Below are positions 13,454 to 20,827 of a stretch of 64,000 nucleotides of DNA, one piece after another. Below the pieces are notes generated by a model, which saw only the letters and a program-made list of their open reading frames with translations, was not told the DNA's origin and made no database searches. A program made the translations under genes and the position numbers. How positions within the stretch are numbered: the first letter of the stretch is position 1; every line of letters starts with the position of its first letter. Location: assembly GCF_001677475.2 (NCBI RefSeq), contig NZ_CP015229.1; one strand, given 5' to 3'. The stretch comes from Escherichia coli (GTDB taxonomy: Bacteria > Pseudomonadota > Gammaproteobacteria > Enterobacterales > Enterobacteriaceae).

Positions 13454-14164
13454 ATGAACGCTGAGCGTAAATTTCTGTTTGCCTGTCTTATTTTTGCGCT
13501 GGTCATTTACGCTATCCACGCTTTCGGTTTATTCGATCTGCTCACCGATTTACCCCACTTACAGACACTCATCCGCCAGAGCGGATTGTTCGGTTATAGC
13601 CTCTATATTCTGTTATTCATCATTGCCACCCTCTTTCTGTTACCAGGAAGCATACTGGTGATCGCTGGAGGAATAGTTTTTGGCCCGCTCTTAGGGACAC
13701 TACTCTCATTAATTGCCGCCACGCTCGCCTCCTCGTGCTCATTCCTGCTGGCGCGCTGGCTGGGACGTGATTTACTGCTGAAATACGTGGGCCATAGCCA
13801 TACCTTTCAGGCCATTGAAAAAGGCATTGCGCGTAACGGTATTGATTTTCTTATTCTGACCCGCTTAATCCCGTTGTTTCCTTACAATATTCAAAATTAC
13901 GCTTACGGATTAACCACAATCGCCTTCTGGCCTTATACCCTTATTTCGGCACTCACGACCCTACCCGGTATTGTTATTTATACCGTGATGGCAAGCGATC
14001 TCGCCAATGAAGGCATTACGCTGCGCTTTATTTTACAACTCTGTCTGGCGGGCCTGGCGCTGTTTATTCTCGTCCAGCTCGCAAAACTCTACGCCCGACA
14101 CAAACATGTGGATCTGTCTGCTTCGCGCCGCAGCCCACTTACTCACCCAAAAAATGAAGGATAG
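13454..14164 (+). CDS. ydjX: DedA/TVP38-family inner membrane protein
   Basis: ORF track 252 aa trimmed to ATG at 13454 with upstream aggaaa RBS; multi-pass hydrophobic. Confidence 0.8.
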   Translation: MNAERKFLFACLIFALVIYAIHAFGLFDLLTDLPHLQTLIRQSGLFGYSLYILLFIIATLFLLPGSILVIAGGIVFGPLLGTLLSLIAATLASSCSFLLARWLGRDLLLKYVGHSHTFQAIEKGIARNGIDFLILTRLIPLFPYNIQNYAYGLTTIAFWPYTLISALTTLPGIVIYTVMASDLANEGITLRFILQLCLAGLALFILVQLAKLYARHKHVDLSASRRSPLTHPKNEG

Positions 14165-14168
14165 AACG

Positions 14169-14846
14169 ATGTTGCAACATTATTCAGTGTCATGGAAAAA
14201 AGGACTGGCTGCACTCTGCTTACTGGCTGTTGCTGGGCTTAGCGGCTGCGATCAAAAAGAGAATGCGGCGGCAAAAGTGGAATACGACGGACTTTCGAAC
14301 AGCCAACCGCTGCGTGTCGATGCCAATAACCATACGGTAACCATGCTGGTGCAAATTAATGGTCGTTTCCTCACCGACGACACTCGTCACGGTATTGTGT
14401 TTAAAGATGGCTCCAACGGACATAAATCGCTGTTTATGGGTTATGCGACCCCGAAAGCATTTTATGAAGCCCTGAAAGAGGCAGGTGGTACACCGGGCGA
14501 AAACATGACGATGGATAATAAAGAAACGACTCATGTCACAGGCAGCAAACTGGATATTTCGGTCAACTGGCAAGGGGCGGCAAAAGCGTATTCCTTCGAT
14601 GAAGTGATTGTTGACAGTAATGGCAAGAAACTGGACATGCGCTTTGGCGGTAATTTAACGGCAGCAGAAGAGAAGAAAACGGGCTGCCTGGTGTGTCTGG
14701 ATAGCTGCCCGGTCGGCATCGTCAGCAATGCAACATACACTTATGGTGCGGTTGAAAAACGAGGTGAAGTTAAATTCAAAGGCAATGCCTCGGTTCTCCC
14801 GGCGGATAACACGCTGGCAACGGTTACCTTTAAAATCACCGAATAA
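14169..14846 (+). CDS. ydjY: putative lipoprotein with Cys-rich C-terminus (CLVCLDSCP)
   Basis: Internal ATG at 14169 (MLQHYSVSWKKGLAALCLLAVAGLSGC..., lipobox) within ORF 14007-14846. Confidence 0.8.
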   Translation: MLQHYSVSWKKGLAALCLLAVAGLSGCDQKENAAAKVEYDGLSNSQPLRVDANNHTVTMLVQINGRFLTDDTRHGIVFKDGSNGHKSLFMGYATPKAFYEALKEAGGTPGENMTMDNKETTHVTGSKLDISVNWQGAAKAYSFDEVIVDSNGKKLDMRFGGNLTAAEEKKTGCLVCLDSCPVGIVSNATYTYGAVEKRGEVKFKGNASVLPADNTLATVTFKITE

Positions 14847-14860
14847 AGCCAGGATAAAGG

Positions 14861-18800: not shown

Positions 18801-19453
18801 TGCTCTGCGTGAAAAATATTTCGCTACGTTTACCAGACAGCCGCTTGCTGACAAATGTTAACTTTACGGTTGATAAAGGTGACATTGTCACGTTAATGGG
18901 GCCGTCTGGCTGTGGAAAATCCACTCTGTTTTCATGGATGATTGGTGCGCTGGCCGGACAGTTTTCTTGTACAGGTGAGCTATGGCTCAATGAGCAACGG
19001 ATTGACATGCTACCCACCGCAGAGCGTCAGATTGGCATTCTTTTCCAGGATGCACTGCTATTTGACCAGTTCAGCGTCGGGCAAAATTTACTGCTGGCTC
19101 TGCCAGCGGCACTCAAAGGTGTTGCAAGGCGCGATGCGGTAAATGATGCGCTGGAGCGTGCGGGGCTTGGCGGTATGTTCCATCAGGATCCTGCCACTTT
19201 GTCTGGCGGTCAGCGAGCGCGCGTTGCTCTGCTTCGCGCTCTTCTCGCTCAGCCAAAAGCGTTGCTACTGGATGAGCCATTCAGCCGTCTTGATGTAGCT
19301 CTGCGCGATAATTTTCGCCAGTGGGTGTTCAGCGAAGTTCGCGCCCAGGCGATCCCAGTCGTTCAGGTAACGCACGATCTCCAGGATGTTCCTGCTGATA
19401 GTTCTGTTCTGGATATGGCGCAGTGGTCAGAAAATTACAACAAACTGCGATAA
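18800..19453 (+). CDS. ynjD: ABC transporter ATP-binding protein
   Basis: Internal ATG at 18800 (MLCVKNISLRL...) overlapping the ynjC stop; Walker A GPSGCGKST and LSGGQ signature. Confidence 0.8.
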   Translation: MLCVKNISLRLPDSRLLTNVNFTVDKGDIVTLMGPSGCGKSTLFSWMIGALAGQFSCTGELWLNEQRIDMLPTAERQIGILFQDALLFDQFSVGQNLLLALPAALKGVARRDAVNDALERAGLGGMFHQDPATLSGGQRARVALLRALLAQPKALLLDEPFSRLDVALRDNFRQWVFSEVRAQAIPVVQVTHDLQDVPADSSVLDMAQWSENYNKLR

Positions 19454-19519
19454 CGCAAAGTTTTTCTCAATGCGTCAGTTCAGAATGGCGCACTCAAAAC
19501 TACAATGTCGGGATTTTCG

Positions 19520-20827
19520 ATGAAACGTGTTTCTCAAATGACCGCGCTGGCAATGGCTTTAGGGCTGGCTTGCGCTTCTTCGTGGGCCACTGTACTGGCG
19601 AAGCCTCTTACACTTGACCAGCTTCAGCAACAAAATGGCAAAGCGATAGATACTCGCCCCAGCGCGTTTTATAACGGCTGGCCACAAACCTTAAATGGCC
19701 CTTCCGGTCATGAACCAGCCGCCTTAAACCTCTCTGCCAGCTGGCTCGACAAAATGAGCACCGAACAGCTCAATGAGTGGATCAAGCAACATAACCTGAA
19801 AACCGATGCTCCGGTGGCGCTGTACGGTAATGACAAAGATGTCGACGCCGTCAAAACGCGACTGCAAAAAGCAGGTTTTACGCATATCTCCATCCTGAGT
19901 GACGCGCTAAGCGAACCTTCCCGTCTGCAAAAACTGCCGCATTTTGAGCAGCTGGTTTATCCGCAATGGCTGCACGACCTGCAACAAGGTAAAGAGGTTA
20001 CGGCGAAACCTGCCGGTGACTGGAAAGTCATTGAAGCGGCCTGGGGCGCTCCTAAGCTTTACCTTATCAGCCATATTCCCGGTGCTGACTACATCGATAC
20101 CAACGAAGTGGAAAGCGAACCGCTGTGGAACAAAGTTTCTGATGAACAACTAAAAGCGATGCTGGCAAAACACGGCATTCGCCATGACACCACGGTCATT
20201 CTGTACGGGCGTGACGTATACGCTGCAGCGCGTGTGGCGCAAATTATGCTTTATGCCGGCGTGAAAGATGTGCGCCTGCTGGATGGCGGCTGGCAAACCT
20301 GGTCCGACGCGGGTCTGCCCGTTGAGCGCGGTACGCCACCGAAAGTGAAAGCGGAACCGGATTTCGGCGTGAAGATCCCGGCACAACCGCAACTGATGCT
20401 TGATATGGAACAGGCGCGTGGACTGCTGCATCGCCAGGATGCATCGCTGGTGAGTATTCGTTCGTGGCCGGAGTTTATCGGTACGACCAGCGGTTACAGC
20501 TATATTAAACCAAAAGGTGAAATAGCCGGAGCACGTTGGGGACACGCTGGTAGCGACTCGACGCATATGGAAGATTTTCATAACCCGGATGGCACCATGC
20601 GCAGCGCCGATGATATTACGGCTATGTGGAAAGCATGGAATATCAGACCAGATCAGCAAGTTTCATTCTACTGCGGCACCGGCTGGCGCGCGTCCGAAAC
20701 CTTTATGTACGCACGAGCAATGGGCTGGAATAACGTCTCCGTTTACGACGGTGGCTGGTACGAATGGAGCAGCGATCCAAAAAATCCGGTTGCAACCGGT
20801 GAACGCGGCCCGGACAGTAGCAAATAA
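19520..20827 (+). CDS. ynjE: periplasmic thiosulfate sulfurtransferase (rhodanese domains)
   Basis: ORF track 440 aa trimmed to MKRVSQMTALAMALGLACASSWA... Confidence 0.85.
   Translation: MKRVSQMTALAMALGLACASSWATVLAKPLTLDQLQQQNGKAIDTRPSAFYNGWPQTLNGPSGHEPAALNLSASWLDKMSTEQLNEWIKQHNLKTDAPVALYGNDKDVDAVKTRLQKAGFTHISILSDALSEPSRLQKLPHFEQLVYPQWLHDLQQGKEVTAKPAGDWKVIEAAWGAPKLYLISHIPGADYIDTNEVESEPLWNKVSDEQLKAMLAKHGIRHDTTVILYGRDVYAAARVAQIMLYAGVKDVRLLDGGWQTWSDAGLPVERGTPPKVKAEPDFGVKIPAQPQLMLDMEQARGLLHRQDASLVSIRSWPEFIGTTSGYSYIKPKGEIAGARWGHAGSDSTHMEDFHNPDGTMRSADDITAMWKAWNIRPDQQVSFYCGTGWRASETFMYARAMGWNNVSVYDGGWYEWSSDPKNPVATGERGPDSSK

Follow-up and report, generated by a model that had tools for sequence, protein, structure and literature searches.

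Organization of the locus

The genes ydjX, ydjY, ydjZ, ynjA, ynjB, ynjC, ynjD and ynjE form a compact cluster at positions 13454-20827 of a 64-kb stretch of Escherichia coli DNA (contig NZ_CP015229.1), referred to below as the window, and the present analysis concerns the function of this cluster. All eight open reading frames (ORFs) are intact and lie on the plus strand, as an earlier note made from the sequence alone had stated, and their coordinates agree with those annotated by RefSeq in the E. coli genome that matches best (Table 1). The cluster is the known and annotated E. coli ydjXYZ-ynjABCD operon together with ynjE (K-12 b1750-b1757), and has genes, gene order, junctions and the FNR box upstream of ydjX in common with K-12, allelic divergence being the sole difference. 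Taken in order from ydjX to ynjE, the junctions measure +4, +14, -1 (cTGATGg), +9, -28, -1 (cTAATGc) and +66 bp; the shared TGATG (ydjZ/ynjA) and TAATG (ynjC/ynjD) and the overlap of about 28 bp between ynjB and ynjC, all reported in the earlier note, are exact.

When 5426 complete E. coli genomes were searched by megablast with positions 13300-21000, the cluster was found in 5424. Over this segment, the DNA is 97.6% identical to the closest of the 5426 complete genomes and 96.5% identical to K-12; Escherichia whittamii and cryptic-clade genomes are found at about 90-91%. Because the best identity is 97.6% and that to K-12 is 96.5%, the window comes from an E. coli lineage or allele that is somewhat divergent. 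In annotated E. coli genomes, xthA lies upstream of the cluster, and ynjF, nudG, ynjH and gdhA follow downstream.

Table 1. Genes and sequence features of the ydjX-ynjE region (positions in the window)
Feature	Coordinates	Strand	Description
FNR box TTGAGAAAAATCAA	13331..13344	+	centre 116.5 bp 5' of the ydjX ATG; one mismatch to TTGAT-N4-ATCAA
Candidate -10 hexamer TATACC	13384..13389	+	read from the sequence; not reported by the consensus promoter scan
ydjX	13454..14164	+	TVP38/DedA-family inner-membrane protein, 236 aa
ydjY	14169..14846	+	lipoprotein; lipobox LSGC27, Asp at +2, C173-x2-C176-x3-C180
ydjZ	14861..15568	+	TVP38/DedA-family inner-membrane protein, 235 aa
ynjA	15568..16116	+	AhpD/CMD-like protein, motif C74-L-C76-E-F-C79; 1 nt in common with the ydjZ stop codon
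ynjB	16126..17292	+	periplasmic substrate-binding protein of an orphan ABC importer
ynjC	17265..18800	+	fused two-domain ABC permease, 12 hydrophobic segments; 28-bp overlap with ynjB
Chi site GCTGGTGG	18338..18345	+	inside ynjC
ynjD	18800..19453	+	ABC ATPase; 1 nt in common with the ynjC stop codon
Imperfect palindrome CTGCGATAACGCAA	19445..19458	+	overlaps the stop codon of ynjD; may bind a regulator of the ynjE promoter
Sigma-70-like promoter match TTCAGA-16-TACAAT	19479..19506	+	ynjD-ynjE spacer; promoter scan, 9/12 consensus positions
ynjE	19520..20827	+	secreted three-domain rhodanese; C385 in the FYCGTGWR loop
ynjF	20836..21456	-	CDP-alcohol phosphatidyltransferase-family membrane protein; beyond the coordinates covered by the earlier note

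Anaerobic regulation

Myers et al. (2013), with data from chromatin immunoprecipitation sequencing (ChIP-seq) and RNA sequencing (RNA-seq), report that FNR directly activates ydjXYZ-ynjABCD as one operon, the site being at -60.5; they treat ynjE as a further FNR-activated unit, separate from the operon and with its own site at -41.5. The box TTGAGAAAAATCAA at 13331-13344 is identical in sequence in K-12, and probably corresponds to the published -60.5 site. If the TATACC hexamer serves as the -10 element, transcription would start near 13396-13398, which would place the box at about -60.5. As for ynjE, no FNR box with two or fewer mismatches was found upstream of the gene; the best has three, and is centred 223.5 bp 5' of the ynjE ATG. 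A candidate for the site behind the published regulation at -41.5 may be the palindrome at 19445-19458, and a perfect palindrome, TGCGTTAACGCA, occupies the equivalent place in the loci of Salmonella/Citrobacter-type (L089) and Kluyvera (L090) genomes. The palindrome in the window is a poor match to the FNR consensus, and the published FNR peak coordinates for ynjE do not reconcile exactly with the sequence. Since we found no strong terminator in the 66-bp ynjD-ynjE spacer, read-through into ynjE is possible.

Sastry et al. (2021) report an uncharacterised iModulon composed of ydjXYZ-ynjABCD, ynjE, yedEF and yjiLM, with anaerobic activity that depends on Fnr and ArcA; the authors propose for it a link to molybdenum and selenium usage. 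Over-expression of BaeR is reported to give weak induction of ynjABCD. Because the two FNR units are separate in the study of Myers et al. (2013) and belong to a common iModulon in that of Sastry et al. (2021), the transcriptional layout is one of seven genes plus one (ynjE), co-regulated. The earlier note had proposed a single eight-gene operon; this holds for ydjX to ynjD, where neighbouring genes overlap or are separated by at most 14 bp and one FNR operon has been mapped; ynjE has a longer gap, a promoter-like match and an FNR unit of its own, and may also be reached by read-through. The note had named separate transcription with unrelated regulation as evidence that would speak against its operon, and co-expression analysis as a check: the regulation of the two units is related, both being under FNR, and all eight genes are found in the same anaerobic iModulon.

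The YdjX, YdjY and YdjZ proteins

The RefSeq names of YdjX and YdjZ place both in the TVP38/TMEM64 family. Each has 4-6 hydrophobic segments, and the VTT domain (PF09335) is recorded on their orthologues in L089 and L090, in agreement with the earlier description of two DedA/TVP38 membrane proteins. The VTT/DedA domain is common to YdjX, YdjZ and the wider DedA superfamily, including UptA and a selenite-linked DedA protein of Ralstonia, but YdjX and YdjZ belong to the TVP38/TMEM64 branch and are not UptA equivalogs (NF052604), their scores being 27.5 and 36.4 bits, respectively, against a cut-off of 250.

YdjY is a member of the small NF040466/PF27149 domain family, with a profile score of 146 bits (cut-off 50); at 50% identity, the family comprises 393 clusters in a set of 1.84 billion proteins. 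The cysteine-rich motif CLVCLDSCP, which the earlier note had singled out in this lipoprotein, is present as GCLVCLDSCP at residues 172-181, and provides the sole cysteines of mature YdjY, C173, C176 and C180. In an alignment of 26 diverse sequences, these three residues are invariant together with R73, H74 and about 30 further positions. An Asp at position +2 of a lipoprotein is the established signal for inner-membrane retention in E. coli, and its presence in YdjY suggests that the protein is kept at the inner membrane. The AlphaFold2 (AF2) model of YdjY is confident, with a mean predicted local distance difference test score (pLDDT) of 91, yet none of the solved folds matches it convincingly. 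In K-12, YdjY currently carries the product name of a 4Fe-4S ferredoxin, an assignment that is poorly supported: the Pfam Fer4 match has E = 0.09-0.25 and covers the Cys motif alone, the fold matches include no ferredoxin, the mature protein has three cysteines where four cluster ligands would be expected, and the signal peptide, which is of the Sec-type lipoprotein kind and lacks a twin-arginine motif, is a poor fit. No selenocysteine variants of YdjY were found in the loci inspected (L021 and L087), where the gene is intact. With respect to base composition, ydjX and ydjY have a G+C content of 48% and the rest of the cluster 51-57%, which is consistent with a different history for the ydjX-ydjY part.

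Conservation of YdjY and DedA across phyla

For a comparison across phyla, 80 YdjY loci were taken from named genomes, and the genes within 7 kb of ydjY, defined by crude ORF calling, were clustered; partners were counted by genus group, out of 43 groups for DedA and out of 45 for accessory families. Between phyla, YdjY homologues share 50-60% identity; their distribution is patchy, mostly in anaerobes and host-associated bacteria. A DedA/TVP38 partner accompanies ydjY in 40/43 genus groups; the median distance is +738 bp, 91% of the partners share the strand of ydjY, and the gene directly 3' of ydjY is in most loci YdjZ-like (225-280 bits). The ydjX-ydjY-ydjZ order is mirrored elsewhere, with a YdjX-type gene upstream in deltaproteobacteria and a YdjZ-type gene downstream in Firmicutes, and both DedA-YdjY and rhodanese-YdjY fusions (the latter P0271 and P0350) exist. 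We know of no DedA protein for which an obligate lipoprotein partner such as YdjY has been described.

Directly upstream of ydjY in deltaproteobacteria are genes for fusion proteins of 570-680 aa, in which an N-terminal 2x[4Fe-4S]/CCG region similar to HdrD and GlpC is joined to a YdjX-type DedA domain (for example L006 11205-12977, L047 7145-8998 and L056 492-2366), and in Catonella, a separate Fer4/CCG gene adjoins the DedA gene. These arrangements argue for a reductase step of the disulfide type on the cytoplasmic side, a role that YnjA could fill in E. coli.

The accessory families that recur near YdjY are rhodaneses (12/45 genus groups), YnjB-type substrate-binding proteins (SBPs) with a permease (9/45), transferases of TIGR04282/TIGR04283 and kinases (9/45), ArsS-type radical-SAM proteins (8/45), YedF (6/45), SelD, YnjF-type CDP-alcohol phosphatidyltransferases and MprF-like flippase domains (5/45 each), and C-GCAxxG-C-C redox proteins (3/45). 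SelD or YedF is present in seven genus groups. A rough binomial estimate, which ignores phylogenetic non-independence, gives P ~1.6e-5 for SelD and P ~1e-6 for rhodanese. As an internal control, no unrelated or housekeeping family was seen in at least four groups, generic ABC ATPase and two-component genes aside. A full selenium context is seen in Facklamia lactis (L078 1487-18232), where YdjY, DedA and rhodanese genes are part of a single-strand selenium island. This island begins with TIGR04282/04283 transferases, a PrdB-like selenoprotein gene with an in-frame TGA, ArsS, a DsbD-like and a ResA-like gene and two DedA genes, and continues with a nucleoside-hydrolase-like gene, a 4-TM (transmembrane) protein, YdjY, rhodanese, SelD (with an in-frame TGA), YedF, SelB and SelA. 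The evidence supports a conserved and modular anaerobic envelope system, centred on YdjY and DedA and tied to thiol or chalcogen chemistry.

The ArsS/TIGR04282/TIGR04283 clusters, known as 'arsenosugar biosynthesis' clusters, adjoin YdjY-DedA in the eight ArsS groups, and have flippase-like, kinase and YnjF-type lipid genes in common with the other loci. None of their genes occurs in E. coli, which has YnjBCD instead, and in the sampled windows ArsS and the YnjB-type SBP are never found together (0 common groups, from 8 and 9, respectively). It is tempting to read this as a choice between making and importing a compound, but the exclusivity is not significant (P = 0.14), and we do not rely on it.

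Two further observations concern the architecture of the partner proteins. A four-helix membrane module of about 130 aa, which is unannotated and carries a conserved VWLEMR motif, is encoded 3' of ydjY in epsilon- and deltaproteobacteria and in Facklamia (L002 10649-11029, L027 10659-11054, L065 1985-2362), and forms the N-terminus of YdjZ-type DedA proteins of 395-417 aa in Firmicutes (e.g., L014 10698-11903); the module is absent from E. coli. In P0359 (478 aa), a domain similar to the OlsE fatty-acid/ornithine-lipid hydroxylase is fused to a YdjY domain, which hints at a lipid connection.

YnjE and its possible reactions

YnjE matches PDB entries 3IPO and 2WLR at 951 bits, and is the crystallised three-domain rhodanese. 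It has a signal peptide and a single cysteine in the mature protein, C385 in the FYCGTGWR active-site loop, in line with the periplasmic multi-rhodanese sulfurtransferase of the earlier note. The literature describes YnjE as periplasmic, and the purified protein as almost inactive with thiosulfate and poor with 3-mercaptopyruvate. Similarity below the thresholds connects YnjA and YnjE to families with selenocysteine-containing members and to the selenite/tellurite rhodanese ExtH.

The K-12 RefSeq product name of YnjE is 'molybdopterin synthase sulfurtransferase', and Myers et al. (2013), citing earlier work, likewise assign YnjE to the sulfuration of molybdopterin synthase in the cytoplasm. 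If so, the remainder of the operon might aid the maturation of anaerobic molybdoenzymes, an explanation with which the suggestion by the iModulon authors of combined molybdenum and selenium usage can be aligned. The FNR induction of the cluster also coincides with that of anaerobic molybdoenzymes. However, the chemistry of MoaD and MoeB takes place in the cytoplasm, and YnjE, with its signal peptide, is regarded as a periplasmic protein. Furthermore, there is no molybdenum-cofactor (Moco) riboswitch in the region 12900-21700, no Moco biosynthesis genes recur near YdjY-DedA in the 45 genus groups, and YnjB is an SBP_bac_8 protein outside the ModA family. Support of Moco synthesis is for these reasons a very unlikely function of the operon.

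Residues 34-427 of YnjE align at about 300 bits with the sulfurtransferases 6KVW, 6KTV and 6H98, including the FYCGTGWR loop and an SGY-x-YIK segment. We take these structures, which the PDB table names 'sulfurtransferase', to be EanB, the anaerobic ergothioneine synthase, as is supported by a paper on ergothioneine synthases. The same paper cites the YnjE structure among function-unknown 'EanB-like enzymes' that 'may attach sulfur to heterocycles'. By analogy, YnjE would form C-S bonds in the periplasm, and sulfurise or selenate a small heterocycle, with YnjBCD importing the substrate or the product. Such a reaction offers the closest rescue of the sulfur-containing or thiamine-like substrate put forward in the earlier note, and is in line with the near full-length similarity between two anaerobe-associated rhodanese-like proteins with the same active-site loop, with the poor activity of YnjE on thiosulfate and 3-mercaptopyruvate, and with the invariant residues of YnjB, which would fit a cationic ligand (see below). 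EanB is a cytoplasmic enzyme, however, whereas YnjE is secreted by means of its signal sequence; no EanA-type or other hercynine-forming methyltransferase is present in the cluster or within 10 kb, the sulfurtransferase activity reported for YnjE is weak, and the DedA, YdjY, YnjF and SelD/YedF neighbourhoods are left unexplained. We therefore consider an EanB-like function of YnjE unlikely.

The YnjBCD importer and the thiamine question

YnjB (NF008633, 555 bits; SBP_bac_8, PF13416), the fused permease YnjC and the ATPase YnjD constitute an ATP-binding cassette (ABC) importer of the architecture expected from the earlier note, which had described it as thiamine-transporter-like. The architecture stands: the thiamine importer ThiBPQ likewise combines an SBP and an ATPase with a fused permease of 12 TM segments, and the ATPases are similar at the family level. 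The fused permease also resembles ThiP-type permeases. ThiQ is among the better matches of YnjD, at 133 bits, and some sources call YnjB a 'putative thiamine transport system substrate-binding protein'. The thiamine part of the description, on the other hand, does not follow from the data. The earlier note had suggested structure prediction of YnjB as a check, and the AF2 model (pLDDT 89) has only generic cluster-D SBPs as structural neighbours (PhnS-like STM0429, PotD, FbpA and MctA); it is about equally distant from the PhnS-like, PotD, FbpA, MctA and TbpA structures, with 12-17% identity. TbpA ranks 28th among the fold matches, at 14% identity, and in a profile search of the PDB, PotD (E = 4e-5) is preferred over TbpA (2QRY, E = 0.24); a plain sequence search of the PDB with YnjB found no relative. 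The ThiQ score of YnjD falls below the cut-off of 245, and sulfate and phosphonate ATPases score equally well or better. Finally, neither a thiamine pyrophosphate (TPP) riboswitch nor a Moco riboswitch, nor any other Rfam family, was detected at E below 0.3 in 12900-21700, the locus is controlled by FNR rather than by thiamine, and the recurrent neighbours of YdjY are chalcogen, redox and lipid genes. That YnjBCD is a second uptake system for thiamine, or for a thiamine precursor, is highly improbable.

The invariant residues of YnjB are often aromatic or acidic (W40, D51, Y61, D95, W98, E102, F104, D136, F137, E145, D190, F191 and W239), a composition that would be typical of sites for cationic ligands. 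As in the earlier note, no assigned substrate can be named: the searchable literature gives none, and we found in it no functional paper on YdjY, YnjF, YnjB, YnjC or YnjD.

YnjA, YnjF and a possible lipid connection

YnjA is AhpD/CMD-like, as already noted from its sequence, with a match to PF02627 (E = 5e-8), AhpD/CMD proteins as PDB relatives and a C76-E-F-C79 motif; it also has sub-threshold similarity to a YciW-related (seleno)protein family. YnjF has five hydrophobic segments, and PF01066 is recorded on its orthologues. Its best NCBIfam matches are archaetidylinositol phosphate (AIP) and phosphatidylinositol phosphate (PIP) synthases, both below their cut-offs, so no equivalog assignment is made.

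Gene-neighbourhood conservation, another of the checks named in the earlier note, is partial within Enterobacteriaceae. In the Salmonella/Citrobacter-type and Kluyvera loci, xthA is followed by ydjX, ydjZ, ynjB, ynjC, ynjD and ynjE, but ydjY is absent, and a ynjA-like CMD gene is instead located beside ynjF, which it overlaps by 8 bp, on the opposite strand (L089 13750-14935, L090 13717-14908). Since these relatives lack ydjY and keep the ynjA-like gene upstream of ynjF on the opposite strand, the Escherichia arrangement, with ydjY present and ynjA moved into the operon, is derived. In three lineages of Firmicutes (L048, L054 and L060), a YnjF-like gene also separates the DedA genes from ynjB, and in Formimonas (L037) one adjoins the DedA genes. 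Because of the coupling of ynjA to ynjF and the placement of ynjF-like genes between DedA genes and ynjB in Firmicutes, ynjF is probably part of the same system as the ydjX-ynjE cluster.

These neighbourhoods bring a lipid head-group pathway into consideration. YnjBCD would import a polar alcohol or cation, YnjF would couple it to CDP-diacylglycerol, YdjX and YdjZ would flip the resulting phospholipid into the leaflet that faces the periplasm, and there YdjY and YnjE would modify or use it; in other taxa, the imported compound would be made by ArsS-type radical-SAM, glycosyltransferase and kinase genes. DedA-superfamily proteins are known translocators of lipids or polyprenyl phosphate, although the NCBIfam similarity of YdjX and YdjZ to UptA is weak (27-36 bits against the cut-off of 250). 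In addition to the positions of the YnjF-like genes, including that of ynjF beside the cluster in Escherichia, and the translational coupling of ynjA and ynjF in the enterobacterial relatives, the recurrence of MprF-type flippase-like, TIGR04282/TIGR04283 transferase and choline-kinase-like genes near YdjY-DedA, the YdjY-OlsE-like fusion and the lack of overlap between the YnjB-type SBP and ArsS groups can be cited in favour. Against this, the last pattern is not significant, the E. coli YnjF has low similarity to the Firmicutes proteins (37-49 bits), many YdjY-DedA loci have no YnjF-like gene, and no unusual phospholipid is known to us from anaerobic E. coli, although no exhaustive search for one was made. 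On balance, a lipid pathway as the function of the cluster is rather unlikely, but it may complement the chalcogen model described below, the lipid then being the carrier.

A different possibility is that the cluster has no single function, and that unrelated modules (ydjXYZ, ynjBCD, ynjE and ynjA-ynjF) are placed under one anaerobic promoter in Escherichia. The modules do separate, as is evident from the loci without ydjY in which ynjA is found elsewhere; the ABC transporter is missing from most YdjY-DedA loci, and YnjB homologues far outnumber YdjY homologues. Yet combinations of DedA, YnjB-type ABC importer, YnjF and rhodanese recur in both Firmicutes and Enterobacteriaceae, and the genes are translationally coupled and co-expressed; we consider a set of unrelated modules unlikely.

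A model for chalcogen handling at the envelope

The reading that we favour, with a probability of roughly one in three (0.35), is that the cluster encodes an FNR-dependent anaerobic envelope system that acquires a reduced chalcogen, more likely selenium than sulfane sulfur, and traffics it from the periplasm to the cytoplasm. Capture would take place in the periplasm, where Cys385 of YnjE and the three cysteines of YdjY could hold the chalcogen as a persulfide, perselenide or selenotrisulfide. YdjX and YdjZ would then move the captured chalcogen across the membrane, and a cytoplasmic thiol reductase would free selenide or sulfide for acceptors of the SelD/YedF type. YnjA would be this reductase in Escherichia, and the Fe-S/CCG domain of the YdjX-type fusion proteins would be its counterpart in deltaproteobacteria. 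An organic or lipid-linked carrier would probably be provided or made by YnjBCD and YnjF. The roles of these last components constitute the weakest part of the model, and seem to fit better with its lipid or carrier variant. More tentatively, YdjY and TVP38/DedA may be the core of an unrecognised dedicated prokaryotic route for selenium (or chalcogen), fed by YnjE and completed by YnjA or an HdrD-like reductase, perhaps with a YnjF-made lipid carrier that DedA flips.

Selenium is favoured on three independent grounds, the SelD, YedF, SelA and SelB neighbourhoods, the co-expression with yedEF and the reported link between DedA and selenite. When the YdjY loci were inspected for selenium context, selD, selA, selB or yedF genes were found to adjoin some of them, as seen from the SelD and YedF counts and the Facklamia island given above. 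The presence of selD 6.2 kb past ynjE in the window lends weak support to the same conclusion, and so do the sub-threshold similarities of YnjA and YnjE described above. YedE and YedF, a candidate selenium pair, are co-expressed with the operon, and YedF and SelD adjoin YdjY-DedA in other phyla; both the pair and the present system are assigned to selenium by context alone. The two systems are otherwise distinct: YedE is a Sulf_transp membrane protein, unrelated to the TVP38/DedA proteins and the three-cysteine lipoprotein described here, and yedEF are not part of this locus. As for the DedA proteins, a review reports that a family member is implicated in selenite uptake in Ralstonia. The sulfur-related substrate suggested in the earlier note is fair at the level of protein families, but comparison across genomes and co-expression both favour, more specifically, selenium or another chalcogen, and a thiamine-related compound is not supported.

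Several observations weigh against this interpretation. Most YdjY-DedA loci, including those of Finegoldia, Gemella and Peptostreptococcus, have no selenium gene within 10 kb, and the groups that have SelD are partly related, four of them being Desulfobacterota lineages. ArsS clusters (8 groups) are commoner neighbours than SelD (5), so that arsenic, another metalloid or a lipid product is possible. The Salmonella/Citrobacter-type and Kluyvera genomes keep the rest of the cluster without ydjY, which implies that YdjY is not essential to the action of YnjBCD, YnjE and YnjF, and in the model, neither the ABC importer nor YnjF has a clear role. K-12 RefSeq, and Myers et al. (2013) on the basis of earlier work, attribute to YnjE a function in the cytoplasm, the sulfuration of molybdopterin synthase, and the purified protein is nearly inactive with thiosulfate. 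A report of a selenium-binding or selenium-uptake phenotype for YdjY or this cluster was not found in the searchable literature.

Neighbouring genes and other features

The order downstream of the cluster is ynjF, nudG, ynjH, gdhA, ynjI, topB and selD, with selD at 27015-28064 on the minus strand; the Salmonella/Citrobacter-type and Kluyvera loci have the same order through topB, where the compared sequence ends. The genes nudG (plus strand) and ynjH (minus strand), at 21543-22188, converge and overlap by 35 bp, and a survey of excludons gives both ynjE-ynjF and nudG-ynjH as pairs with overlapping transcripts.

The Chi site inside ynjC to which the earlier note had drawn attention is real, but has no special meaning, as it is one of 17 in the window, where 2.1 are expected from shuffled sequences. 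Four Chi sites lie within the cluster, at 15662(+), 17575(-), 18230(+) and 18338(+). The excess is the usual genome-wide property of E. coli, and nothing specific to the operon.

Significance

The operon, its annotation, the FNR mapping and the transcriptomic suggestion of selenium or molybdenum usage are already known. What we did not find in the searchable literature are the YdjY-DedA core that is conserved across phyla, its selenium islands and rhodanese fusions, and the inclusion of ynjF and ynjA in the system. According to reviews up to May 2026, no transporter specific for selenium is known in prokaryotes, which makes the locus a reasonable and testable candidate for such transport, and it is co-expressed with yedEF, the only other candidates for selenium uptake. 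If the model is true, it would provide the first physiological role for two of the eight E. coli DedA paralogues, for an orphan ABC importer, for YnjF and for the structurally solved YnjE, and the ydjXYZ-ynjABCD-ynjE-ynjF genes of E. coli would be the first genetically tractable example of a YdjY-DedA selenium route.

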